64,000 nt of DNA, from the NCBI GenBank assembly GCA_963737265.1, contig CAVTRY010000023.1:416001-480000 (forward strand), read 5' to 3'. This DNA comes from an uncultured delta proteobacterium (GTDB lineage Bacteria; Myxococcota_A; Polyangia; Fen-1088). Position numbers and translations under genes: made by a program. How positions within the stretch are numbered: position 1 is the stretch's first letter; each line of letters begins with the position of its first letter. The notes under the pieces were generated by a model that was not told the DNA's origin, ran no database searches, and worked only from the letters and a program-made list of their open reading frames with translations. Of this stretch, positions 12,344 through 62,711 are shown piece after piece.

Positions 12344-15300
12344 ATGTTGAATTACAAATCGCGTCGTTCACTGACGTTCTTGTCGCTCTCCTCGGTCTGG
12401 ATCGCGGCATCGCTGCTGTCCGCAGGCTGCCAAAACACCGCTGCGCTGCCCGGCCAGACGGCCGACGGGCCCTCTGCAGGAGGTAGTGGTGGTACCACGA
12501 CGATCGTAATTCCTGACGGCGGCATCTCTTTGTCACAGGACGGTGGCTGCATTTCGAGTTGCACCCCTGCAGGCGGCCAATATTGCGGAACCATCCTCGA
12601 TGGCTGCCAGGGGACCCTCAGCTGCGGCGCGTGTCCAGCGGGCCAACCCTGCGTCGGCGGTGTGTGCGCCAGCGGATCGGGTACCGATGCCGGCGCGCTG
12701 ACATCGTGTGTGGTCACGGGCGGAAGCTACTGCGGAACGATCGGAGACGGGCTGGGCGGCCAGCTCGTATGCGGTGCCTGCAAAGCTGCCGGCTGGGTCT
12801 GCACAAGCGGCGTCTGCACCGCCGATTCCACCGTTTGCCAGGCGAGCACCTGTGGTACGGGCGCCGACAAATACTGCGGCAAGGTCGGCGACGGCTGCGG
12901 ACATGCCCTCGATTGCGGCGGCTGCGCCGCCGACCAGGTCTGCACCAACAACCAGTGCGTGCCCGCCGTTTGCGTGGCCACGACCTGCAATCCCACGGGC
13001 GGGCAGTACTGTGGTGGGGTGCTGGGCGATGGCTGTGGCGGCACGATAACCTGCGGCGACTGCACCACGGCCGGATGGACGTGCCAGGATCACCTGTGCA
13101 AAGGCGGAGCCTCGTGCGCTCCCCTCGCCTGCGGCTCTGGCTCCGGCAAGTACTGCGGGACCATCGGCGACAACTGCGGCAACAGCCTGGATTGCGCCGA
13201 TTGCATCGCGGGTGAGACCTGCGTGAGCAACCAATGCGTGCCGACGAATTGCACACCTCTCACCTGCAACCCCACGGGGGGACAGTACTGCGGCGGCAAA
13301 ATCGGCGACGGCTGCGGTGGAACCCTGGATTGCAGCACGCCCTGTCAGACGGGCTGGGTGTGCTCCGGCAACCTCTGCGTCGGGGATTCGACGTGCATGC
13401 GGCTTGCGTCTTGCGACAACGGTACGCCGTTCAACTATTGCGGCGATATCGGCGACAGTTGCGGCGGCACGCTTCACTGTGGCGCCGATTGTGCCGCCGG
13501 CCAAGTTTGCGACACCGCGAAAGGCCTGTGCAAGGGCGATACGACCTGTGTTCCCACCAAATGCACGAATGGAACAATTTTCAATTACTGTGGCGACATC
13601 GGCGATGATTGCGGCGGAACTCTCCACTGCGGCCAGGACTGCGCCGATGGGCAGGCTTGTGACAGCACGACAGGCCTATGCAAAAGCGACGCCACTTGCA
13701 CACCCGTCGCTTGTCAAAACGGCACTTCCTTCAACTACTGTGGCGATGTCGGCGACGGCTGCGGCGGAACTCTTGCATGCGGCGCCGACTGCGCTGCACA
13801 CCAGTTGTGTGGCGACGATGGAATCTGCAAGGGCGATGGGACATGCCTGAGCTCGACCTGCACCAACGGAACCTCATTCAATTATTGTGGCGACATAGGC
13901 GATGGCTGCGGCGGAACTCTCTCGTGCGGCACCACCTGCGGCAGCCATCAGGTGTGCGGCGCCGACAAATTGTGCAAGGGCGATAACACGTGTAACCCGG
14001 TCACGTGTGTGACTGGGACTGCATTCAACTACTGCGGCACCATCGGCGACGGCTGCGGTGGTGCGCTCGCGTGCAGCAACAACTGTGGAACCGGGAAGAC
14101 CTGCGACACCACCCAGGGCCTATGCGTGGGGGATGCGACCTGCGCGCGCGTGACAAGTTGTAGCAACAGCACCCCCTTCAACTATTGCGGCAAGATTGGC
14201 GACAATTGCGGTGGAAGCCTGAGCTGCGCGACGGACTGCGGCGTAGGCAAGGTCTGCACGAACAATGTCTGCAAGGGCGACGCAAGCTGCACACCGCTGA
14301 CCTGCAAGCCCGCGAGCGGCGGCCAATACTGCGGCGGAACCGTCGGCGATGGCTGCGGCAACTCGATAAGTTGCACCGATGCGTGTCCGACCGGCACGGT
14401 CTGTAGCGGTAATGTTTGCGTTTGCAATGGCGGCCTTGTCTGTCAGGTCGCCCACTGCGACGCCAGCTCGACGACCGTCACGGGAGTCGTCTACGACCCG
14501 GCGGGCGTGAATCCGCTCTACAATGTCATCGTCTACATCCCGAATACCGCCCTCGATCCCATCACGCACGGCCCAACGTGCGACCAATGCGCCACACCGT
14601 CCGGCGAGCCCATCGCGGCCGCGTTGTCGGGCGCCGACGGCAGCTTCACCCTGACCAATGTTCCGAGCGGAACCAATATCCCCATCGTCTTCCAGCTGGG
14701 GAAGTGGCGCCGCCAGGTCAAGATCCCAACGGTGAACCCGTGCGTGGAAAACGATGTTCCCGCCAGCCTCACCCGCTTGCCTCGCAACCAGAACGACGGC
14801 GACGCCGGCACGGTGTCGTTGCCCAAGATCGCCATTACGGCCGGACACGCACGGACCGCGGATAATAGCGTGACCGAGCGATTGCAGTGCTTGCTTCAAC
14901 GCATCGGGGTCAGCGCCACGGAATTTACACTACCGGGCGGAGCCGGGTCTGTCAGCCTTTACAACCAGTCGAATGGTGCGGATTCCTGCAATCAGGTGAC
15001 CGGCGGGAACGGAGCCTTCCCGGATGCGACCACCACCCTCTGGGACAGTCAAGCCCATCTCAATCAGTACGACATGGTTTTGCTCAATTGCGGCGGCGAT
15101 CAGGGCGCGTCCGACCCCAACAATAACAATGTCTATATCTCCCACCCAGATGCCGTCACTCGCATGAAGACCTATGTCAACGCCGGGGGACGAGTCTTCG
15201 CCGAGCATTACCACTGGGATTGGATCAAATCGGTCGCGAACTATCCTTCGACATTCGGCGAGCTCGCGACCTGGAACGCACAAACCGACGTCATCGGCCC

Positions 15301-16051
15301 GAACCCGCGCAACACCTTGGTCGATGTTTCCTTCCCGCGCGGTGTGGCGTTCGCCGAATGGCTGAAGGACGTTGGCGCCTCCACGATTCAGGGACAACTG
15401 ACCATATCGAGTGCGGTCAAGTACACCGCCATCGACCAGATTAACCCGCCCTCACAGCGGTGGATTTACGAGCCCGCCAACCCGGCGGCGCCAACTGGCG
15501 CCGCACAATATACGCACTATTTCAGCTTCGACACGCCGGTAGGCGTGGCGCCCGCCAGTCAATGCGGTCGTTTCGTGTACACGGGTTTGCACGTAAGCGA
15601 CGCTGCGTCGGTTGGCTTCCCCGGCGACCCGGACACGACCTCGGGAAACACCTTCCCTGGATGCTGCGCTGCCCGAACACTGCTCTCGCCGCAGGAGAAG
15701 GTTCTCGAGTTCATGATCTTCGACCTCTCATCCTGCATCAGCAACATCAACTTGCCGCCGCCGCCACCGCCAACGACGGCGATTCCCGCCGCAGCGCCGC
15801 CGGCCCCACCGCCGCCCGCACCGCCGCCGCCGACCTTGCCGGCTAGCCCCTCGCCACCTCCCGCACCGCCACCGCCGCCACCGCCGCCAGCGGCGACAAC
15901 ACCACCCGTTCCGCCATCACCGGCAGTGCCGCCACCGCCACCGCCACCGCCGCCCGTCGCGGCACCGGCACCGCCAGCAGCGCCACCGCCGTCGCAATCG
16001 CCGCCGCCACCACCACCACCGCCGCCCGTGCCAGAACAGTACATCCCGTAA
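12344..16051 (+). CDS. Large Cys-rich repeat surface lipoprotein with carboxypeptidase-regulatory-like domain and poly-proline tail
   Basis: AGGAG RBS before ATG 12344; lipobox LSAGC; 13 copies of YCG..(G)D.CG..L.C; VTGVVYDPAG..PLYNVIVYIP domain; C-terminal ~95 aa Pro-rich stretch. Confidence 0.85.
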   Translation: MLNYKSRRSLTFLSLSSVWIAASLLSAGCQNTAALPGQTADGPSAGGSGGTTTIVIPDGGISLSQDGGCISSCTPAGGQYCGTILDGCQGTLSCGACPAGQPCVGGVCASGSGTDAGALTSCVVTGGSYCGTIGDGLGGQLVCGACKAAGWVCTSGVCTADSTVCQASTCGTGADKYCGKVGDGCGHALDCGGCAADQVCTNNQCVPAVCVATTCNPTGGQYCGGVLGDGCGGTITCGDCTTAGWTCQDHLCKGGASCAPLACGSGSGKYCGTIGDNCGNSLDCADCIAGETCVSNQCVPTNCTPLTCNPTGGQYCGGKIGDGCGGTLDCSTPCQTGWVCSGNLCVGDSTCMRLASCDNGTPFNYCGDIGDSCGGTLHCGADCAAGQVCDTAKGLCKGDTTCVPTKCTNGTIFNYCGDIGDDCGGTLHCGQDCADGQACDSTTGLCKSDATCTPVACQNGTSFNYCGDVGDGCGGTLACGADCAAHQLCGDDGICKGDGTCLSSTCTNGTSFNYCGDIGDGCGGTLSCGTTCGSHQVCGADKLCKGDNTCNPVTCVTGTAFNYCGTIGDGCGGALACSNNCGTGKTCDTTQGLCVGDATCARVTSCSNSTPFNYCGKIGDNCGGSLSCATDCGVGKVCTNNVCKGDASCTPLTCKPASGGQYCGGTVGDGCGNSISCTDACPTGTVCSGNVCVCNGGLVCQVAHCDASSTTVTGVVYDPAGVNPLYNVIVYIPNTALDPITHGPTCDQCATPSGEPIAAALSGADGSFTLTNVPSGTNIPIVFQLGKWRRQVKIPTVNPCVENDVPASLTRLPRNQNDGDAGTVSLPKIAITAGHARTADNSVTERLQCLLQRIGVSATEFTLPGGAGSVSLYNQSNGADSCNQVTGGNGAFPDATTTLWDSQAHLNQYDMVLLNCGGDQGASDPNNNNVYISHPDAVTRMKTYVNAGGRVFAEHYHWDWIKSVANYPSTFGELATWNAQTDVIGPNPRNTLVDVSFPRGVAFAEWLKDVGASTIQGQLTISSAVKYTAIDQINPPSQRWIYEPANPAAPTGAAQYTHYFSFDTPVGVAPASQCGRFVYTGLHVSDAASVGFPGDPDTTSGNTFPGCCAARTLLSPQEKVLEFMIFDLSSCISNINLPPPPPPTTAIPAAAPPAPPPPAPPPPTLPASPSPPPAPPPPPPPPAATTPPVPPSPAVPPPPPPPPPVAAPAPPAAPPPSQSPPPPPPPPPVPEQYIP

Positions 16052-16067
16052 GACCGACGTTGATCCG

Positions 16068-16118
16068 CCAGGCCCCGAGGCTGAGCCGCGAAAGCGGCTG
16101 CCTCGTCCGAAGGCCTGG
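16068..16118. terminator. Long GC-rich hairpin with GAAA tetraloop between convergent genes
   Basis: CCAGGCC/GGCCTGG, CGAGGC/GCCTCG and AGCCGC-GAAA-GCGGCT nested stems; no U-tract. Confidence 0.45.
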
Positions 16119-23783: not shown

Positions 23784-26435
23784 TTACTGAATTGCGAACA
23801 GACAGCCGCTGTCACAGGGTTGATTGGGCTGGCCGTTGAGCGCAGTGCCGAGGTCGCATTGCTCGCCCAGATTTGTATCGACGATCCCATCGCCGCAGTA
23901 GTGCGGCAACAGACACCCGATCGTGCATCCCTTCGAATCGGCGGTGGCGGCAGCGCCATTCTGCTTGCCGAGGTCGCACTGCTCCGGCCCACTCGTTCCA
24001 CTTTGCGCAATGCCATCGCCGCAATAGGGACCCCACTTGCATTGAGTGGTACAGCCGCCGTAGGTGGTGTCGTTGTTATTCCCCGTGCAGCCGGTGGGGA
24101 CCGCCGTTCCCGGATCGCCGCAGTCGCACTCCTCGCCGCCGGTGACGACGCCATCGCCGCAGCGCGGCTGGCACTCTGATTTCTTGGTAGTGTAGCCGTT
24201 GAGGGTCAGCTGGTAGTTCGACTCGGGTGGGTGTCGGTCACCGCCGAAAATGGCGATTTCGTAAACTTTGCCCGTGACGAGTCCGAGCGGAACGGTGCGG
24301 ACACGGAAGTCATCCGGCGTGGCGGCGAGTGGAGGCGTCGAATTGGTCGGAGAACAAGCCTTGGACCCCACAGTCACCCCTGTAATATTTCCGGCCGCGT
24401 CCAGGCATCCGCCCTCCGTAACCTGTGCATCCCCATTCGTCGCACCGCTGACCGTAACCTTGCCGGGCAGTTGCTGGTGAATGCCACCGAGGTCGAGAAC
24501 CAAGACACCGTTGATGAAGATGAAAAGGTCGTCATCGCCGTAGAATGACAGCGACAGGCCGTTGGCTGCGTCGTAGGCGAAGAAATAGCGCGCTTCGTCG
24601 GTGAAGTAGTCATCGTTCGTCGCGCCGGGAGTGTTCGTGACCCAGCAGCCATTGCTAAGCGGATTCTGGTTCGGGCAGTCGGCCTGGAGCACGCGGGGCG
24701 GAAAGAGGTATTGATCGCCCCGGCAGGTCGTCCAGATCGGAGTGCCGTTGTAACGATCCCAGTAGGGCCAAAGCATGCACTGCGTATCCTGGCTGGGATT
24801 CAACGTATTGAGGGGAAAGAAACCGCCCTGAGCCAGACGCGATGTACTCGTGTACTGGTATGTGTTCGTGCCCGAGGCCGGGGCGGATTGTAGCTCGAGA
24901 ACGCTCGTGAAAGTCTTGTTCACAGTTGGGTCGTCGTTGAACCATTGATTGAAGCTGGCAGCGTTCTTGTAGGCGGGCACCGTCCCATGGAAAATTGGAC
25001 CACCGGGGGTGCTTGCGGTGTAGCCGGTGATGGTACCGGTATAGGTTCCCATCGAGCTCGTCGTGGTGACGGCAGAGCCTATATTTCCGCCGAGGTAGCC
25101 GCCGTTGCCATCAGAGAGTGGGCTGTCGTTCGCGGCCTCGGTGAAGCCGCCGGGGATGTGGCCAGAATTTCCGATGTCCCAGTCGCTAAACTGGCAGGCA
25201 CAGGTCGTCGTAGGACCGGGCTGGGGCTTGCCATGCAACAGTTTGGGGGCCGCAATTCCCCAACAACGCGCGGTTGAGTCGTTCCCCTTCGCCGGCCCAC
25301 CCGAGTTGGGTACACAAATGGTAGTGGGCGACTTCGATCCATTGTACCGGGTGCCCAGGAAGGGAAAGTCCGGGTGACCGCCAGGGGAGACGTTTTCGGG
25401 CTGAAAGTCCCGGTAGACGATGGGCAGTTCGAGGCACTGGCCCGACCCCGATTGGCAGGTGCTAGAATCTTGTTGCGTTTTGGCCGAGCAAGTAAAGCCA
25501 CTCTCCACCTGACACGTCGACGAACAACCATCGCCATTGATTAGGTTACCGTCGTCGCACGCTTCGCCGGTATCCACGTTGCCATCGCCGCAGCTCGATG
25601 AACACGCCTGAGTGTTGCCGCTGCTATCCTGGCAAGTTGGCTCCTTGGTGCAGGTCTTCGAGCAACCCTTGCCATCGCCGTAGAAGAGACCGTTCATGCC
25701 CTCGCAGGCCGAGGGAAGCTTCGTCTGGTCGGTGCCGCAATCGCACAACTCTCCAGTTTCGACAATGCCGTTTCCGCAAATCGCCTCCGTACACACGCTG
25801 GGCGAGCCAGTGCACGTCCAGCCTGGCTCGACGAGGCAGGTCGACGAACATCCATCACCGCTCTTGGTGTTCCCATCGTCGCATTCCTTGCCTAGCTCGA
25901 CAACGCCGTCGCCACAGTCCGGCGAGCACTTTTTTCCAGGCACGCGGCACACCCAGCCCTTTTCGACGGTCTGACAGTCAGCCGAACAGCCATCGCCGCT
26001 CACCGTATTTCCGTCGTCGCAGGCTTCGTTGGACGTCAGCACACCGTTCCCGCAAACTGCCTGGTTCGTGCAGGACTGACCCGGCGTGGGGCAGATGTAA
26101 TTCGCCTCGATCTGGCAAAGAGCGTTGCACCCATCGCCCGACGTCGTATTTCCGTCGTCGCACTGTTCGGGAGGGTCGAGCTTCCCATTGCCGCACAGGG
26201 CCAGATTGCCGATTGGTACCGAGCTGATGCTGACGACTCCACCGCCGCCCGAACTGTTGCCGCCGCCGTTGCCAGCTCCGCCGTGTCCGCTGCCTCCCCC
26301 GCCGGACGGACCGATCTGCCCACCCGATTGGCACCCGACACCGCCGAAAACGAAGACGCCCCCAAAAAGAAGGGCTGATAGGGAAACCGCCAACAACACG
26401 CGGTTGGCACAAAGTGGGGTAGTGCTGGTTCGCAT
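23784..26435 (-). CDS. Fibro-slime domain lipoprotein with myxobacterial Cys-rich (CGNG..E.CDDGN) repeats
   Basis: GVGC lipobox; repeated CDDGN..SGDGC; YRDF, FTDEARYFF, FYGDDDLFIFINGVLVLDLGGIH. Confidence 0.85.
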   Translation of the reverse strand: MRTSTTPLCANRVLLAVSLSALLFGGVFVFGGVGCQSGGQIGPSGGGGSGHGGAGNGGGNSSGGGGVVSISSVPIGNLALCGNGKLDPPEQCDDGNTTSGDGCNALCQIEANYICPTPGQSCTNQAVCGNGVLTSNEACDDGNTVSGDGCSADCQTVEKGWVCRVPGKKCSPDCGDGVVELGKECDDGNTKSGDGCSSTCLVEPGWTCTGSPSVCTEAICGNGIVETGELCDCGTDQTKLPSACEGMNGLFYGDGKGCSKTCTKEPTCQDSSGNTQACSSSCGDGNVDTGEACDDGNLINGDGCSSTCQVESGFTCSAKTQQDSSTCQSGSGQCLELPIVYRDFQPENVSPGGHPDFPFLGTRYNGSKSPTTICVPNSGGPAKGNDSTARCWGIAAPKLLHGKPQPGPTTTCACQFSDWDIGNSGHIPGGFTEAANDSPLSDGNGGYLGGNIGSAVTTTSSMGTYTGTITGYTASTPGGPIFHGTVPAYKNAASFNQWFNDDPTVNKTFTSVLELQSAPASGTNTYQYTSTSRLAQGGFFPLNTLNPSQDTQCMLWPYWDRYNGTPIWTTCRGDQYLFPPRVLQADCPNQNPLSNGCWVTNTPGATNDDYFTDEARYFFAYDAANGLSLSFYGDDDLFIFINGVLVLDLGGIHQQLPGKVTVSGATNGDAQVTEGGCLDAAGNITGVTVGSKACSPTNSTPPLAATPDDFRVRTVPLGLVTGKVYEIAIFGGDRHPPESNYQLTLNGYTTKKSECQPRCGDGVVTGGEECDCGDPGTAVPTGCTGNNNDTTYGGCTTQCKWGPYCGDGIAQSGTSGPEQCDLGKQNGAAATADSKGCTIGCLLPHYCGDGIVDTNLGEQCDLGTALNGQPNQPCDSGCLFAIQ

Positions 26436-37786: not shown

Positions 37787-37859
37787 TCGCGGTTCCCAGC
37801 CTGGCGGTGGGAAAGTTTCTATCACAGACGATCCGTCCAGTCTGCCCCGCCGAGTCCTC

Positions 37860-38439
37860 GGGTGCTTCCCTGAAATGGGGGCTGGGGCTTCACCTCGCCC
37901 CGCGCAGGTGGGATCGGAGGGAAAAACAGGGAGGAACGGAGGACCAGAGGGATCACGGGTTGGGTTGACGAGGCGGCGGAGACCCTCGCGAAGTACGGGG
38001 ACGTGGAAATTGACGAGCAGGCCCACCGGCAGTCGTAGGAGCTTGGGATAGGTAATGACCTGTGCCAAGTGGGACAGGAAGCAACTGCTCTACCGTCTTG
38101 ACTTCGACGACCAAACGGCCTTCCACCATGAGGTCGAGGCGATAGCCGCAGTCGAGGTCAATGCCTTTGTACTGCAGAGGAATCGCGACCTGACGTTGCG
38201 TGCGAAATCCACGCAGGCCTAGCTCGCGCGCCAGGCAGTGCTCGTAGGCCGACTCAAGCAGCCCGGGACCGAGGTGACGGTGGACTTCGATGCAGGCGGC
38301 GATAATTTGCCCAGTAAAGTCATCCTGTCTCTGTTTCTCCGTTCCTCGCTGTTCCATATCTGCGTTTTCGGCGGCACTCCGCCAGAAGTTGCTACCTCAC
38401 CGAGCCCCCGGCTGGGGCCCCCGTTTCAGGGAGGCACCC
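37860..38439 (-). mobile_element. Non-autonomous TIR cassette (580 bp) carrying a GxxExxY gene, copy 1
   Basis: 23-bp TIRs 37860-37882 and 38417-38439 (21/23 match); perfect 9-bp flanking duplication CGAGTCCTC at 37851-37859 and 38440-38448; second copy at 60702-61270. Confidence 0.85.
37960..38357 (-). pseudogene. GxxExxY (PD-(D/E)XK-like) protein, frameshifted near 38070
   Basis: IIAACIEVHRHLGPGLLESAYEHCL, YRLDLMVEGRLVVEVK, then in another frame [17 protein letters not shown]...GLRRLVN. Confidence 0.85.
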
Positions 38440-38491
38440 CGAGTCCTCGGCCAGCTGTCGAGGACAACCCGCCAAGGAGACGTCGAGCGGT

Positions 38492-48969: not shown

Positions 48970-49812
48970 TACGATTCTTGGTTCTCCGTCGAGGCGCGAT
49001 ACCTCTTCGCATTCAACGATGCCTTTCAGCGGCAATTTTTCGGCGACGACGACACGTTCGTCTTCATCAACGGCGTGCTGGTGATCGACCTCGGGGGCGT
49101 CCACCAGCGCCTCCCCGCCAGCGTGAAAGTCGATGCCGCCGGGAACGCGACCATTCAGGAGGGTGGAAACATCTATATGCCGTGCACGAACCCTGTCGGC
49201 CAGACTGGTGACCTCGTGCCCTGCGATGGCAGCGCCAACGCGAGGGCTCCAGTGACGAAGGTGCCGTTCAACTCGACCTGCCCGGCTGGAAACACGACGT
49301 GTGATTGCCGACAGCGGACGCTGACCGCTGCGGCCCTCGGTCTACAGCCGGGCAATACCTACGAGATCGCCATTTTCGAGCGCGATAGACACCCGACGGA
49401 ATCGAACTTCCAACTCACCCTGAGCGGGTTTTCCACGAACGAGTCAGCCTGTCAGACCCGATGTGGTGACGGGGTGATCGCGGGCGGGAAGGAATGCGAC
49501 TGCGGCGATGGGACGCTGGCGGCCCTGCCCGCGGGTTGCGCCGGGCCAAATAGTGACACTCTGTACGACGGTTGCACGACCCAGTGCGTGTGGGGACCCT
49601 ACTGCGGCGACAATATCGTGCAGAGCCCACAGGAACAGTGCGACCTTGGGAGCGCGAACAACAACGCGGGCTACGGTATGAAGGGCGGCTGCACTCCGAC
49701 ATGCCAACTGGCGCATTACTGCGGGGACAGCATCGTGGACACTGCGCAAGGAGAGCAATGTGACATGGGGTCCAACAATGGCCAACCAGGACAAGGCTGC
49801 AGCGCGAGCTGT
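48970..49812 (+). pseudogene. 5'-truncated fibro-slime/Cys-rich protein paralog
   Basis: Begins abruptly at DSWFSVEARYLF, then FFGDDDTFVFINGVLVIDLGGVH and Cys repeats; no signal peptide; upstream sequence non-homologous. Confidence 0.75.
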
Positions 49813-53025: not shown

Positions 53026-55374
53026 ATGACAAGGATCAGGATTCCCTGCGCTATCACCCGAGGCACGCCGCTGGTCGGCTCGTTTGCGCGGTATTGCCCA
53101 ATTGCCATTGTGGTATTTTTGACGACAAGTTGCTCAAACGCATCTATCGTCAACCCAGGAACAGGCGGTATGGGCGGGCAGCAATCGACTGGGACCGGCT
53201 CTGGAGGAACAAGCGGAAATGGCCAGACATCCACCGCCACCAGCATCACCATCACGACTCCCGACGCAGCCGCCGACCGCCCAACCGGCGGCCACTGTGG
53301 GGACGGGATCCTCGAAACGGGCGAGCAATGCGATGATGGCAATACGGTCAGTGGTGACGGATGCAATGCTCTCTGTCAAATTGAGGCCAATTGGATCTGT
53401 CCGACCCCCGGCCAGCCTTGCCAGAATCTCGGGGTTTGCGGAAATGGCATTCTCACATCGAACAAAGCGTGTGACGATGGTAATACGGTCAGCGGAGACG
53501 GCTGTTCAGCCGATTGCCAAGCCGTCGAACCGGGCTACGTCTGCCGTGTCCCCGGAAAGCCCTGCACCGTCTTGTGTGGGGACGGCATGGTAAAAGGAAC
53601 GGAGCAATGCGACGACGGCAACACCGTGAATGGCGATGGCTGTTCCGCCACCTGCAAGGTCGAGCCCGGCTACCAGTGCAAAGGCAGTCCCAGCGTTTGC
53701 ACGGCCACGGTTTGTGGAAACGGCAAAGTCGAAGGCGGAGAGGGGTGCGACGATGGCAACACCATGCCTTTCGATGGGTGCTCGGAGGACTGCCAGATTG
53801 AACCCATCTGCTCGGGTGCTTCCGGGTGTACGTCTCCCTGTGGGGACGGCATCATCATGGGCAGCAAGCAGTGCGACGACGGCAATAGCACGAGTGGCGA
53901 CGGCTGCTCCTCGACTTGTCAGGTCGAGCCCGGCTGGACCTGCACGCAGCCACCCCTCGGCAACAAGATGATGGTGCCGGTCATCTATCGAGACTTCCGC
54001 TTTCACAATCCCGCCGACTTCGAAGCCGGCGTAATGGGGTCGACTACTGCCACCACCGGCATCGTCGAACCGAGCTTGGACGGGGACGGGAAGCCGGTCT
54101 TCACCGGACTCGCCACTGCTCACATCCAGAGCGTCGCCACCTTTGCCGAATGGTATCGCACAACCCCTGGCGTCAACGATCCGACGGCCTCCAAGTTGGC
54201 GTTGTGGGACAACGGCCAAGGCGGCTACGTCAACCGCTACGGTCCCAATGGCGAACAATGGAACGTAACGACAACGGCCAACTGGTGCGGCCAGGTTGGG
54301 GAAGAGCTGCTGAACGCTGCCGGCAATCCCCAGCCCTGCACCTTCCAATACCAGCAATCGGCAACCAATCCGACGGGAGGCCAGACCGATTGCCAGAAGA
54401 TGGACGCTCTTGGCTACACCCAGCTCACATGCTTCCTCAACGGCACGACCTATGCCGCAACCTATGTCGTCGCCAAGGTCGACGGCAATCCCCTCTTCTT
54501 TCCTATCGACAACGACCCATTTTCGGCCGACCAGCTCGAAGGTGCTCAAGTTCCCTCCGCTCCGCTGGGGCTGTACGACGCCACAGGAACCTGGCCGTGG
54601 GATGTGGACGCGAATGGGAACAAGATTCTGCACAACTTCAGCTTCACCAGCGAAACGCGCTACTGGTTCAAGTACGACTCAGCCAAGGCATTTACCCTCG
54701 ATTTCGTCGGCGATGACGACGTTTGGGTGTTCATCAATAGGAAGCTGGCGGTCGATCTGGGAGGCATCAAAACGCCGGTGGAAGGTTCCGTCACCCTGGA
54801 TGCCGCGACCATCGCCAGACTGAACCTCGGGCTGCAAAACGGGAATGCTTACGAAATTGCAGTCTTCCAGACCGAGCGTCAGACCACCGGGTCGACCTAC
54901 AAGTTGACCCTGAATGGATTCGATGCCGCTCCCAGTAGCTGCGTTCCCACCTGTGGCGACGGAATCGCGGTCGCCAGCGAGGAGTGCGACTGCGGCAATG
55001 GCACAGTGGCCGTCCCCGCAGGCTGTCCGGGTCCGAATAGCGATACGACGTACGGCGGCTGCACCACGCAGTGCAAGTGGGGCCCTTTCTGCGGAGATGG
55101 CGTCGTGCAGGGGCCGCCACCCAGTGGCCCAGAGGAATGCGACCTAGGCAAGCAGAACGGAGATACCACCCTGGGCAAGGGCGGGTGTACCTTCGCGTGC
55201 AAGAAGCCACATTTTTGCGGCGATGGAAATGTCGATACGGATTTGGGCGAGGTATGCGACATGGGCGCTCTCAATGGCGTTGCGGTCGACGCGAGCGGAA
55301 ATCCATCGAGTGCGCCAGATGCCCAGGTCCTCTGCACGACAGATTGCGCGATTCCCCCGGGAACTGTCTACTAA
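53026..55374 (+). CDS. Fibro-slime domain lipoprotein with myxobacterial Cys-rich repeats
   Basis: GAGG RBS; LTTSC lipobox; CDDGN repeats; YRDF, HNFSFTSETRYWF, FVGDDDVWVFIN.KLAVDLGG. Confidence 0.88.
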   Translation: MTRIRIPCAITRGTPLVGSFARYCPIAIVVFLTTSCSNASIVNPGTGGMGGQQSTGTGSGGTSGNGQTSTATSITITTPDAAADRPTGGHCGDGILETGEQCDDGNTVSGDGCNALCQIEANWICPTPGQPCQNLGVCGNGILTSNKACDDGNTVSGDGCSADCQAVEPGYVCRVPGKPCTVLCGDGMVKGTEQCDDGNTVNGDGCSATCKVEPGYQCKGSPSVCTATVCGNGKVEGGEGCDDGNTMPFDGCSEDCQIEPICSGASGCTSPCGDGIIMGSKQCDDGNSTSGDGCSSTCQVEPGWTCTQPPLGNKMMVPVIYRDFRFHNPADFEAGVMGSTTATTGIVEPSLDGDGKPVFTGLATAHIQSVATFAEWYRTTPGVNDPTASKLALWDNGQGGYVNRYGPNGEQWNVTTTANWCGQVGEELLNAAGNPQPCTFQYQQSATNPTGGQTDCQKMDALGYTQLTCFLNGTTYAATYVVAKVDGNPLFFPIDNDPFSADQLEGAQVPSAPLGLYDATGTWPWDVDANGNKILHNFSFTSETRYWFKYDSAKAFTLDFVGDDDVWVFINRKLAVDLGGIKTPVEGSVTLDAATIARLNLGLQNGNAYEIAVFQTERQTTGSTYKLTLNGFDAAPSSCVPTCGDGIAVASEECDCGNGTVAVPAGCPGPNSDTTYGGCTTQCKWGPFCGDGVVQGPPPSGPEECDLGKQNGDTTLGKGGCTFACKKPHFCGDGNVDTDLGEVCDMGALNGVAVDASGNPSSAPDAQVLCTTDCAIPPGTVY

Positions 55375-59894: not shown

Positions 59895-60647
59895 TTAGTC
59901 CGCAGGCCTGACCATGATGGAATTCGCCTCGCTGCGGCGGAGCGCCAGCCGCGCGCCTTGACAGCGCACCCAAAACGGATCGCCACCCAAGCCCACGCGC
60001 TCGATGTCGATGACCGTATTGGGAAGAACGCCCATGTCGAGCAGGCGCTGGCGAAGAGCGCCGACGGCATTGATTTTGGTTACCACCGCGCTCTGCCCGG
60101 GCTTTACATCGCCAAGACTCATGGACGTGCTCTCCTTCTTCGTCGAACAAACCGAACAAGAATCGGGAAGCTGCCCCATGTGCGGGCCACGCTTGCTGTC
60201 CTGAACCATGGGACACTGGCGAAAGCTCTCGACCACCGAAGGACAGGTACCCAAAAACTCGAAGAAACGCACCAGGCGATCCATGGCATCGTCGGTCAGG
60301 CTGTGCTCCATCGCGCAGGCCTGCTCGCCAGCGGCCCCGGCCGGCATGCTCAGCACCTCCTCAAAGAAACGCGTGAGCAAGCGATGGCGGGAAAAAACCC
60401 GGCGCCCCGCCTGCTCGCCCGACGGCGTGAGCGCGATGTATTCCCGCCGTTCGTAGCGCACAAGCGCCAGCTCGGCGAGCCGGCGCAAGGCAATCGACAC
60501 CGAAGCCGCCTTCACGTCACGCGCCCGCGCCACGTCCTTGACCCGGGCGAAGCCCTGCTCCTGAACCAGCAGATAGATCGTCTCGAGGTAGTCCTCCAAC
60601 GACGAGCTGATTTCCGCTTCCGGCGTGTTGTGTGCCATCGCTGTCAT
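59895..60647 (-). CDS. DtxR/MntR-family metal-dependent repressor fused to a C-terminal FeoA domain
   Basis: SLEDYLETIY, RVKDVA...SVS, RHRLL..FF, ACAMEH; C-terminal LRQRLLDMGVLP...GDPFWV...LALRRSEA. Confidence 0.92.
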   Translation of the reverse strand: MTAMAHNTPEAEISSSLEDYLETIYLLVQEQGFARVKDVARARDVKAASVSIALRRLAELALVRYERREYIALTPSGEQAGRRVFSRHRLLTRFFEEVLSMPAGAAGEQACAMEHSLTDDAMDRLVRFFEFLGTCPSVVESFRQCPMVQDSKRGPHMGQLPDSCSVCSTKKESTSMSLGDVKPGQSAVVTKINAVGALRQRLLDMGVLPNTVIDIERVGLGGDPFWVRCQGARLALRRSEANSIMVRPAD

Positions 60648-60685
60648 TGTTAGTTAACACTAACAACAGAAGCCCGTGCTGTCAA
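60647..60685 (-). promoter_or_regulatory. Sigma70 promoter with overlapping palindromic operator
   Basis: Minus strand TTGACA (60685-60680), 17-nt spacer, TGnTAGTGT (-10 at 60662-60657); palindrome TTGTTAG-N6-CTAACAA at 60647-60666. Confidence 0.8.
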
Positions 60686-60701
60686 CCGGTCTACCTGGTT
60701 C

Positions 60702-61270
60702 GGGTGCTTCCCTGAAATGGGGGCTGGGGCTTCACCTCGCTGGGATCGGAAGGAAAGACAGGGAGGAACGGAGGATCAGAGGGATCAAGGGTTGGGTTCA
60801 CGAGGCGGCGGAGACCCTCGCGAAGTACGGGGACGTGGAAATTGACGAGCAGGCCAACCGGCAGTCGTAGGAGCTTGAGATAGGCAATGACCTGTGCCAA
60901 GTGGACAGGAAGCAACCGTTCTACCGCCTTGACTTCGACCACCAAACGGCCTTCCACCACGAGGTCGAGGTGATAGCCGCAGTCAAGGTCAAGTCCTTTG
61001 TACTGCAGAAGAATCGCGACCTGACGTTGAGTGCGAAATCCACGCAGGCCTAGCTCGCGCGCCAGGCAGTGCTCGTAGGCCGACTCAAGCAGCCCCGGAC
61101 CGAGGTGACCGGTGGACTTCGATGCAGGCGGCGATAATTTGCCCAGTAAAGTTATGCTGTCTCTGATTCTCCGTTCCTCCCTGTTCCCTATCTGCGTTTT
61201 CGGCGGCACTCCGCCAGAAGTTGCTACCTCACCGAGCCGCCGGCTGGGCCCCCGTTTCAGGGATGCACCC
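60702..61270 (-). mobile_element. Non-autonomous TIR cassette (569 bp) carrying a degenerate GxxExxY gene, copy 2
   Basis: TIRs 60702-60724 and 61248-61270 (21/23); flanks ACCTGGTTC / TCCGGGTTC (7/9); colinear with copy 1; ATG changed to AGG; extra base near 61110. Confidence 0.85.
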
Positions 61271-61277
61271 TCCGGGT

Positions 61278-62711
61278 TCAGGGACGAGCCGCCTGACCAA
61301 AGAGACCGCGGCGCTTGATGATATCGGCCACCTCCTCGGGAACCATGGTCTCCCAGGAGGGATCGCTGGCCTTGAGGCGCCGGAAGACCTCGCGCGAAAG
61401 GATCGGCAGCACCGTGGGGTCGTAGTTCTCGATGGCAACGAGCGAGCCGCGATCGAGGAGGTAGCCGTACAGCTTCGTCAGCCCCGCCGCCACCTCCATG
61501 TTGGACGCGGTGACGAGCTTGGTCGTGTCCGGATCCAACATCGGGTACACGTAGAGCTTCACCTCCTTGCTGAAGAGGCGGCCGATGGCTTCCAAAATTC
61601 CGCCGTCGAGACTGGCGTAGTATTTTTCGTCGAATAGCTGAACCAAGCTTCCGGTGCCGAGCACGATGGCGATGGCGCTGCACGTGCAGCGGCGCAGGTA
61701 GCCTGCCAGCCGGTAGTACTCGAAATAGTCCGACACCAGGACGGTCTTGCCGGCTGCCCCGAGGACATCGGCACGGGCGAGGAAGTCGCGCGGGTCGAGG
61801 GGGCCGCCATCGCTGAGCAGATTGCTCATGGTGATCTCCGCGACCTCGACGATGTCGTTCTCTGATGTCCCCTGCGCCTTGGCGAAGGCCGTCCGCGCGC
61901 ACTTCAACATGTCGATGTTGACCTTGGTCACCGGACGAAAGGTGCCGCGCAGGACAAGCACGGGCTTGCGATGCAACACTTCGGTCGGCTGCATCACGTC
62001 GCCCTTGGAGTCGAACATGGCGGCCTGGGACAGCCCAAGCTGCACCAGCTTCAAGCTCATCAGCCGGTTGTCCACATGGCGAAATTCGATACCCGAGAAT
62101 TCGATCATATCGATCTCGATACGTTCGGTGGACAGGTTGTCGAGCAGCGATTCGACCAGTTGCTCTGGCTCGTGGTGCTGGAAGAAGGCACCGTAAAGGA
62201 GGTTGACGCCCACGATACCCAAGGCTTCCTGCTGCAGGCTGGTTTCGCGGTCGCGCATGCGTACGTGCAGGACGATCTGGCTTTCGTCGTCGCGCGGGTG
62301 GGTTTGAAATTTGAGGCCCATCCAGCCGTGACAGTCCTTGTTGCCGTGAAAACTCTTGGCCGCCACTGTGTCGGCGAACACGAAGAACGCGGTGGTGTCG
62401 CCGCGCGCGGCGCTCAGCCGCTTGACGTTTTTTTCATGCTCGTAGTCGAGCATGCTCTGCAAGCGGTCGCGCGAGACGTAACGTTCGGTGTGACCATAGA
62501 TGGCGTCGCTGACCGCCATGTCATAGGCCGACATGCTCTTGGCAATCGTGCCAGACGCGCCTCCCACGCGAAAAAACCAGCGGGCAACTTCTTGGCCGGC
62601 GCCGATCTCGGCGAAGGTGCCGTAGCGGCGCGCGTCCAGGTTGATAGCCAGCGCCTTGCGATGGGTATCGAGGACTTCCTGGCGGGGGTAGCCGGAGGGT
62701 GGTGTGTACAT
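61278..62711 (-). CDS. Conserved nucleotidyltransferase-fold protein (nicotinate-nucleotide adenylyltransferase-like family), function unclear
   Basis: YGTFAEIGAGQEVARWFF, LRGTFRPVT, C-terminal WETMVPEEVADIIK. Confidence 0.75.
   Translation of the reverse strand: MYTPPSGYPRQEVLDTHRKALAINLDARRYGTFAEIGAGQEVARWFFRVGGASGTIAKSMSAYDMAVSDAIYGHTERYVSRDRLQSMLDYEHEKNVKRLSAARGDTTAFFVFADTVAAKSFHGNKDCHGWMGLKFQTHPRDDESQIVLHVRMRDRETSLQQEALGIVGVNLLYGAFFQHHEPEQLVESLLDNLSTERIEIDMIEFSGIEFRHVDNRLMSLKLVQLGLSQAAMFDSKGDVMQPTEVLHRKPVLVLRGTFRPVTKVNIDMLKCARTAFAKAQGTSENDIVEVAEITMSNLLSDGGPLDPRDFLARADVLGAAGKTVLVSDYFEYYRLAGYLRRCTCSAIAIVLGTGSLVQLFDEKYYASLDGGILEAIGRLFSKEVKLYVYPMLDPDTTKLVTASNMEVAAGLTKLYGYLLDRGSLVAIENYDPTVLPILSREVFRRLKASDPSWETMVPEEVADIIKRRGLFGQAARP

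Follow-up and report, generated by a model that had tools for sequence, protein, structure and literature searches.

MIC231 of the Bacillus cereus group is a mobile insertion cassette (MIC). A comparable element occurs in two copies in the DNA analysed here, a stretch of 64,000 nucleotides from an uncultured delta proteobacterium (the window; positions 416001–480000 of contig C23, in a 6.55-Mb assembly of 25 contigs), and carries a gene of the GxxExxY nuclease-fold family. Like the MICs, this element possesses terminal inverted repeats (TIRs) of the insertion sequence (IS) type, a target-site duplication (TSD), one passenger gene and no transposase, and its mobilisation is presumed to occur in trans through a cognate IS. 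There are also significant differences from the MICs. The parent of the present element most probably belongs to ISKra4 (Mutator-like), rather than to IS231, IS4 or any other family; the element is present in very many copies, with 39 loci at 98–100% identity to the consensus; the cargo is a decaying GxxExxY gene without an internal stop; and many insertions are located exactly 16 bp upstream of -35 boxes.

The 'mic' elements of qnrD and qnrS2, according to the accessible parts of the reports on them (PMC3913671, PMC5444012, PMC2266710), are MICs or miniature inverted-repeat transposable elements (MITEs) with passenger genes, and the window element is of this already known kind in every feature tested. 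The combination of an ISKra4-derived cassette, a stop-less GxxExxY cargo, 39 loci and landing upstream of promoters is new; the literature yielded no ISKra4-derived non-autonomous element with a passenger gene, the supplementary IS tables of PMC3942029 lying outside that search. The element is very probably a non-autonomous MIC (a MITE with a passenger gene) that descends from an IS of the ISKra4 family (Mutator-like DDE) and is moved in trans by an ISKra4-family transposase. A MITE or MIC spread in trans had also been proposed in an earlier note on this DNA, and the lack of a transposase inside the element, the TSDs and the IS ends of a cognate ISKra4-family member bear this proposal out.

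Mutator-like transposases of prokaryotes, within the available part of Guerillot et al. 2014 (PMC3942029), act on repeats of 18–39 bp, produce duplications of 8–9 bp and form circular intermediates. The same part of that source describes TnGBS and related ISs that insert upstream of sigma-A promoters, 15–17 bp from the -35 box, and 13 ISs of the ISKra4 group with a similar specificity, the predicted promoter lying 13–17 bp from the inverted-repeat junction; promoters are found on both sides where the repeats are almost perfect, and some ISKra4-family members carry extra genes of unknown function. The cassette resembles the ISs described there in its 23-bp repeats, which fall within the range of 18–39 bp, its G...C ends and its 9-bp duplication, as well as in a fixed distance of 16 bp upstream of sigma-70-type promoters, seen on both sides with near-perfect repeats. 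Unlike these ISs, the cassette has no transposase, and the homology is confined to 23 nt at one end and 49 nt at the other. Of the two ancestries suggested in the earlier note, IS256/Mutator-like or IS1, the Mutator-like one holds at the superfamily level (ISKra4, p-MULT4), and IS1 is not the family. In ISfinder-type reviews, the ISKra4 family is tabulated with GGG ends and a 9-bp direct repeat.

Structure and distribution of the cassette

Two colinear copies of approximately 580 bp are situated at 37860–38439 and 60702–61270 of the window. Their identity is 93% over ~580 aligned bases, and the homology stops 0–2 nt from the terminal repeats, beyond which the flanks are unrelated. Copy 1 (37860..38439, minus strand) is a 580-bp non-autonomous cassette that differs from the 579-bp consensus at three alignment columns. 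Both its gene and its IS-like orientation are on the minus strand; hence, the IRL-equivalent repeat is at the high coordinate (38417..38439) and the IRR-equivalent at the low one (37860..37882), these two 23-nt repeats being complementary at 21/23 positions (91%). The 9-mer CGAGTCCTC, present on the left (37851..37859) and on the right (38440..38448), forms a perfect 9/9 duplication around the copy. An inner inverted repeat lies within the TIRs: a 25-nt arm downstream of the GxxExxY unit (37925..37949), which overlaps codons of the C-terminal tail, is 88% complementary to an arm upstream of the unit (38329..38353), which overlaps the first codons. The GxxExxY (PF13366/TIGR04256) pseudogene of copy 1 occupies 37970..38357 on the minus strand, with family matches at window 38073–38318 and 37970–38074.

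Copy 2 (60702..61270, minus strand) belongs to an older 569-bp subfamily, as established by blastn, the flank table and the consensus alignment. Its IRR-equivalent and IRL-equivalent repeats are located at 60702..60724 and 61248..61270, and the flanking 9-mers, ACCTGGTTC on the left (60693..60701) and TCCGGGTTC on the right (61271..61279), agree at 7/9 positions. The inner arm on the downstream side (60758..60781, 24 nt) is 96% complementary to that on the upstream side (61161..61184), and the GxxExxY pseudogene between 60802 and 61189 (minus strand) covers family positions 16–115. In both window copies, therefore, an inner inverted repeat of ~25 nt encloses the GxxExxY gene.

The 579-bp consensus contains one open reading frame (ORF) of 165 codons, on the minus strand in window orientation. 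Neither in the consensus nor in intact copies does this frame meet a stop within the element; it reads through the left repeat into host DNA, so that the product ends in a ~35-residue out-of-family tail, which crosses the terminal repeat into the host sequence. Family searches found no transposase gene within the 579-bp element, the sole ORF with a family match being GxxExxY.

With copy 1 as the blastn query, 39 element loci were detected on 12 contigs of the assembly, 31 of them full length and eight interrupted, internally deleted or truncated; the genome thus provides a clean natural case of an IS-derived cassette that has multiplied a passenger gene to about 40 copies. Each of the 31 full-length copies has TIRs at its two ends, and 73 of the 74 genome matches to the repeat (up to 5 mismatches) fall in these elements. 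A perfect in-register 9-bp duplication surrounds 29 of the 31, and in one more the duplication becomes perfect after the junction is moved by one G (a 1-nt offset). Window copy 2 is the sole full-length copy with an imperfect duplication (7/9; n = 31). The duplicated 9-mers vary between sites without an evident common sequence. The earlier note had described two colinear copies with 23-bp TIRs and unrelated flanks, a perfect 9-bp repeat around copy 1 and a 7/9 match around copy 2, and homology that ends at the TIRs, all of which were recovered at their positions; its expectation of many more copies genome-wide is borne out by the 39 loci, and the two surveys that it had called for, of the TSDs (30/31 perfect 9 bp, one with the 1-nt offset) and of the TIR alone (73/74), both speak for transposition.

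The main subfamily comprises 27 copies of 577–580 bp, one being 566 bp through a 12-nt internal deletion. Compared with the consensus, 22 of the 27 differ at 0–4 columns, four at 6–9 and the deletion copy at 17. The older subfamily includes four full-length copies of 564–569 bp, window copy 2 among them, and is ~93% identical to the main subfamily. In four soil-metagenome runs of one study, contigs break exactly at 37859/37860 and 38439 and enter the flanks of other copies; these runs may share their sample with the assembly and are not independent support, and the ~60 to 3 depth ratio of run X1 should not be read as a copy number.

Two non-identical cassette copies stand head to tail at C17:62354-63520 (locus L005, G000:C17:61354-64520), with the same 9-mer three times, before, between and after both copies. 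The resulting order of repeat, 9 bp and repeat is similar to the circle junctions that PMC3942029 reports for the transposase superfamily.

Some match to the cassette was given by 12 of 41 relatives (this genome included), and the whole cassette was absent from these relatives outside this genome. In two congeners, the inner ~480 bp (91% and 81–82% identical) occurs with no outer repeats around it, and in one of them an intact 155-codon gene with its own stop lies between housekeeping-type genes. In two congeners, the intergenic region orthologous to the copy 1 site has both neighbour genes and no element; thus, as the earlier note had asked, orthologous loci are not always occupied. A ~370-bp MITE whose repeats are related to those of the window element, but which lacks a GxxExxY gene, occurs in one congener (genome G009; L019 1–325, L020, L021, L022). 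This MITE sits at contig ends, as expected of a multicopy repeat. Furthermore, two sister genomes (G003 and G004; L054–L065) contain a different MITE of ~400 bp, with ~31-bp repeats unlike those of the window element; this second MITE carries both ends of the GxxExxY unit with the nuclease core deleted, in 22 and 8 matches per genome.

Partner insertion sequences and target choice

Searched with the repeat pattern, metagenome contigs yielded 14 stretches. Four of these contain two inverted repeats separated by 1,999–2,148 bp, and in three of the four an uninterrupted 463-aa ORF and a ~142-aa orf2 lie between the repeats; in the fourth, L040, the transposase gene is split. Scored on NF033572 (cut-off 205), two of the 463-aa ORFs proved to be ISKra4 transposases, with 241.7 and 244 bits, and the repeats of the metagenomic ISs are identical to those of the cassette at 22–23 of 23 positions. 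Three further stretches of the 14 are degenerate relatives of the GxxExxY cassette (84–92% identity), indicating that the chimera predates the burst in this genome.

In the host genome, a protein search located a 466-aa transposase homologue on contig C20, which also holds cassette copies. This homologue is 73% identical over its full length, reaches 256.9 bits on NF033572 (cut-off 205) and is followed by an orf2 homologue. The gene is situated within a 2,120-bp IS flanked by a perfect 9-bp duplication, GGAAAGCGG, and both repeats of this IS are 19/23 identical to the cassette right repeat (38417..38439, IRL-equivalent). A search of the same genome with the left repeat (up to 5 mismatches) found no autonomous IS; the C20 IS was missed because six of its positions differ from the cassette left repeat. 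The autonomous IS with the same ends for which the earlier note had suggested a search is thus represented by metagenomic ISs at 22–23/23 and by an own-genome IS at 19/23, and an IS with the exact ends is not in the assembly. All parts for an experiment are at hand, namely the cassette itself, a cognate transposase gene of the ISKra4 family within the host genome, and metagenomic ISs with exact ends.

The last 49 nt of the cassette, in the gene-forward direction, are ~96% identical to the right end of a metagenomic ISKra4-family IS (L035); in copy 1, these 49 columns correspond to the terminal repeat 37860..37882 and the adjoining ~26 nt. Simultaneously, the GxxExxY gene in the cassette points in the same direction as the transposase gene and orf2 in the L035 IS. 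The cassette therefore looks like an ISKra4-family IS, the interior of which has been replaced by a GxxExxY unit.

The repeat-pattern scan was also applied to the order, where 5 of 89 genomes gave matches and none showed paired repeats around a transposase, and to representative genomes, where it returned four stretches. Three of these came from two already-known relatives (2 + 1); the fourth, a single match in an unrelated Bacteroidales metagenome-assembled genome, was taken as chance. Several other ISs of the host were considered as helper and ruled out: a 1.4-kb IS4-family IS with a 438-aa transposase by its different repeats and 11-bp duplication, and the ISAs1 IS (10-bp duplication) and the ISL3 IS (8-bp duplication) by both repeats and duplication length.

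The genome is very rich in ISs. A ~2.5-kb family has ~24 copies with a ~7-bp duplication and a ~1.44-kb family likewise ~24 copies, alongside ISL3 (~1.5 kb, ~17 copies, 8-bp duplication), ISAs1 (1,288 bp, 10-bp duplication), an ISKra4-like IS (1,781 bp, 11 copies, 9-bp duplication) and several regions of nested repeats. The 1.4-kb IS4-family IS (~10 copies) has inserted into two cassette copies, L003 (G000:C23:161554-165571) and L004 (G000:C20:13118-17133), at mirror-image sites immediately within the terminal repeats (25–35 and 547–557 of the element), with an 11-bp duplication in L003.

Target choice was examined in the 62 flanks of the 31 full-length copies, where a promoter-like pair was defined as a -35 box of at least 4/6 and a -10 box of at least 3/6 with a sum of at least 8/12. 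At an offset of exactly 16, such pairs occur in 7/31 left and 3/31 right flanks, against a background of 0.0012 per offset per flank, and at any other offset in at most one flank per side. The first three bases of the -35 consensus, TTG, are found at offset 16 in 13 of the 62 flanks (8 left and 5 right; 0.85 expected) and at other offsets in 0–3 flanks; the excess at offset 16 has P ~3e-12, or 1.4e-10 after correction for 50 offsets. The promoter-upstream targeting of ISKra4 and TnGBS elements is thereby extended to a non-autonomous derivative in a soil bacterium.

Copy 2 offers an example in the window. Adjoining it is a DtxR-type repressor gene (59895–60647, minus strand) with a sigma-70-like promoter (60657..60685, minus strand), composed of TTGACA at 60680–60685, a 17-nt spacer and TAGTGT at 60657–60662. 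The -35 box agrees with the consensus at 6/6 positions and starts exactly 16 bp from the left end of copy 2, and the -10 box agrees at 3/6. Host promoters with a 580-bp insert 16 bp upstream may be changed in their regulation. In this promoter region (60645–60685, minus strand), the -10 box ends ~10 nt before the ATG of the DtxR-type gene; hence, the repressor mRNA would be leaderless or nearly so.

The structure, copy number, target duplications, end homology, target preference and decay of the cargo are directly evident, as is the presence of a cognate transposase gene; the transposase that did the work and the way in which the cargo was captured are inferred. Of the IS, the cassette keeps the ends alone, ~40 nt at the IRL end and ~56 nt at the IRR end with the 23-bp repeats included, and between them lies a captured ~480-bp GxxExxY unit with its own inner inverted repeats, oriented like the transposase gene and orf2 of the IS. 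An ISKra4-family transposase acting in trans would bind the repeats and make a 9-bp staggered cut at insertion, the best candidate for the helper being the single intact 2,120-bp IS on C20 of the same genome. Insertion takes place preferentially 16 bp upstream of a sigma-70-type -35 box, the near-identity of the two repeats allowing either orientation. A recent burst has led to about 39 loci, 98–100% identical to the consensus. The GxxExxY gene, selected before and around capture, is now decaying copy by copy and is unneeded in cis for transposition.

The GxxExxY gene and the rival explanations

The consensus product matches PF13366 (PDDEXK_3; 1.3e-40) and TIGR04256 (2.4e-41) end to end with its residues 13–129, as GxxExxY proteins do, and an intact copy reaches 140.8 bits (cut-off 35) and 138.9 bits (cut-off 22) on the TIGR04256 and PF13366 models; the window copies match in pieces. 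Unlike the usual GxxExxY genes, this gene resides inside an IS-derived cassette, has a tail of ~35 residues and is a pseudogene in half of the copies. In an alignment of 16 family members, G30, G32, Y38, D75, E85, Y103, F117 and R128 are invariant and E35 is nearly so. The cassette product keeps the GxxExxY motif and the D...ExK signature; it has K87, as do most of the 16 alignment rows.

The AlphaFold model of the cassette protein has a mean pLDDT of 93.4 and a pTM of 0.86. Foldseek against the PDB gave weak matches, the best at E 0.009 and none at E <= 0.001, to Cas4 SSO0001, Hjc resolvases and lambda exonuclease. In a wide structural search, the matches of which were likewise weak (Z 7.9–5.0), most of the 44 matches with Z of at least 5 were nucleases of the restriction-endonuclease fold, including the BpuSI and SwaI nuclease domains, Cas4 and Hjc; a phmmer search of the GxxExxY product against PDB sequences returned no hits. 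On the predicted model, these matches fit the Pfam superfamily assignment, PD-(D/E)XK, without naming a function. Literature that names GxxExxY contained nothing on its function and no biochemical data on nuclease activity.

Among the 43 TIGR04256 matches in this genome, 42 are cassette-borne, and the remaining one is a diverged 156-codon paralogue adjoining recA. A sample of 121 genomes from the phylum includes 17 with a family match, the 16 besides this one having 1–9 matches each, and 16 loci from 12 other genomes of the phylum show no sign of the cassette. A large count of GxxExxY paralogues can accordingly be a transposon artefact and not a sign of function. The suggestion in the earlier note that such a cassette explains the scattered paralogy of the family is right for this genome and does not carry over to those 16 loci; in the same way, its description of GxxExxY as the cargo agrees with the family match, the gene being broken in both copies that it had before it.

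In copy 1, an extra G near 38071 shifts the frame after approximately residue 95, so that the ORF (37953..38357) has an out-of-frame tail; this extra G is missing from the contigs of the four metagenome runs. In copy 2, the start codon has changed from ATG to AGG, and a +1 frameshift brings a stop at approximately codon 35. Both belong to the 15 broken copies among the 31 of full length; the other 16 keep the start codon and the frame over residues 1–125, one of them via two compensating indels. Disabling changes recur at different loci, namely a 1-nt deletion in eight copies, one and the same +G in three and ATG to CTG in three. Shared disabling mutations at different loci imply that broken copies seeded new insertions and, hence, that the gene is a passenger. 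A GxxExxY gene is absent from the full ISs of this lineage. The cargo was under purifying selection before its capture, the dN/dS ratio being 0.13–0.19 for two homologues from a single congener and 0.40 for a second congener. The two cassette subfamilies give a ratio of 0.33, from eight synonymous and eight non-synonymous differences, which are too few to say much.

Several observations weigh against the derivation from, and mobilisation by, an ISKra4-family IS. No clear promoter stands at offset 16 in 18 of the 31 insertions, and the TTG signal is seen in 13 of the 31. The 16 copies with an intact nuclease frame retain all conserved residues, and such copies could conceivably trans-complement the broken ones. 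Within the contigs of the four DNA runs, there is no joint across the element, the flanks being partly without cover, and no excision product, circle junction or same-strain empty allele was seen. Furthermore, the repeat search found no IS with the exact cassette repeats in the 25-contig assembly, and the C20 repeats are merely 19/23 identical to those of the cassette; the helper may, thus, be a lost, an unassembled or a foreign IS.

Three other explanations have to be weighed. The GxxExxY nuclease could help the cassette to move, as a TnsA-like second-strand cutter or as a structure-specific nuclease on the inverted repeats, making the element partly autonomous, a role also raised in the earlier note. 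The confident PD-(D/E)XK-type model with its invariant D75 and E85 and near-invariant E35, the frame kept in 16/31 copies, the dN/dS values (0.13–0.40 against homologues; 0.33 between subfamilies, from the 8 + 8 differences) and the GxxExxY units in a second MITE family of two sister genomes would agree with such a role. However, the full ISs of the lineage have the same repeats without the gene, and the IS of which both flanks were read, that on C20, makes the same 9-bp duplication without it; frameshifted or startless copies have reached new loci, with 15/31 broken and the same disabling mutations in 3–8 copies at different loci; and the sister-genome MITEs are multicopy despite a deleted nuclease core. 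An aid to its own mobility is therefore improbable, and this part of the earlier note is not supported.

A helper other than the C20 IS, namely the 11-copy ISKra4-like IS of 1,781 bp, is less probable still. Its repeats, starting GGGTGGGTTGCACGGG, share the first five bases GGGTG with the cassette and agree beyond these at only a few scattered positions; its duplication has the same length of 9 bp. Ten of the 11 copies are full length, with near-identical transposase genes, nine of the ten uninterrupted, and the 11 copies mean more copies of the transposase gene. The product matches ISKra4 at 3.9e-52, but its 177.8 bits are under the curated family cut-off of 205, and over 200 aa it shares only 29.5% identity with the cognate-type enzyme. 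The idea that the copies are segmental duplications, or a repeat spread by recombination, has nothing but the repetition itself in its favour and is refuted for practical purposes, since the homology of 31 copies ends at the inverted repeats between unrelated flanks, and 30 of them have different perfect 9-bp duplications. A cassette of ISKra4 origin that is moved in trans thus remains the favoured explanation.

The inverted-repeat bracket of GxxExxY units

The inner inverted repeat of the cassette recurs around GxxExxY genes elsewhere. Eighteen loci were surveyed, comprising the recA-side paralogue, a locus of one congener and 16 loci spread over 12 further genomes of the phylum. At 13 of the 18, the gene is bracketed by an inverted repeat scoring above all 30 shuffles (13–30 against a maximum of 9–12), and five have no bracket. 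Among the 13, two are paralogues with identical arms, and the direct-repeat control of another is high. The arms are composed of tandem repeats of 7–10 nt, the sequence of which varies between loci, and the arms stay complementary. The bracket is 13–50 nt long; on one side it overlaps or precedes the N-terminus, and on the other it follows the C-terminus. The loci concerned are L047 (G000:C22:196500-200500) at 1821–2291 and, from other genomes, 15 of L069–L090. In this genome, the recA-side paralogue has a bracket, and recA is flanked on its opposite side by a 3' fragment of a further unit. Between the cassette and three congener copies, the homology begins ~40 nt upstream of the start codon and ends right after the downstream arm.

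The bracket of GxxExxY units is not described in the literature searched. Such a bracket points to a constraint acting on DNA or RNA and, possibly, to mobility of the GxxExxY unit itself. GxxExxY genes might, as a tentative and rather unlikely extension, be units of ~470–480 bp (leader, tandem-repeat arm, ORF and matching arm) that form separate, undescribed selfish cassettes, the predicted nuclease acting on its own bracket structure, e.g., by cutting an RNA stem or a cruciform. The present cassette of ISKra4 type and the second MITE family in two sister genomes would then be vehicles that took up such units on repeated occasions. The questions raised are why there is a co-varying bracket on GxxExxY genes and why these occur in more than one MITE family, and the bracket is the part of this work that might lead somewhere new.

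In another genome of the survey (G107), a 697-nt repeat is 95% identical between two loci, L076 and L089, and partly tandem in L076. The GxxExxY unit in this repeat is preceded by the apparent 3' end of a putative transposase gene. Pfam assigned no family to two pieces upstream of the L089 unit, which may be a remnant of an IS630-type transposase.

Apart from the cassette copies, the window contains cysteine-rich repeat arrays (CGDG...C.DGN...GDGC-type and related) at 12500–16100, 23800–26200, 49000–49700 and 53200–55200, which we take to be reminiscent of the cysteine-rich repeats of secreted myxobacterial proteins. A GC-rich stretch of CCG/CCA repeats is located at 15750–16020.

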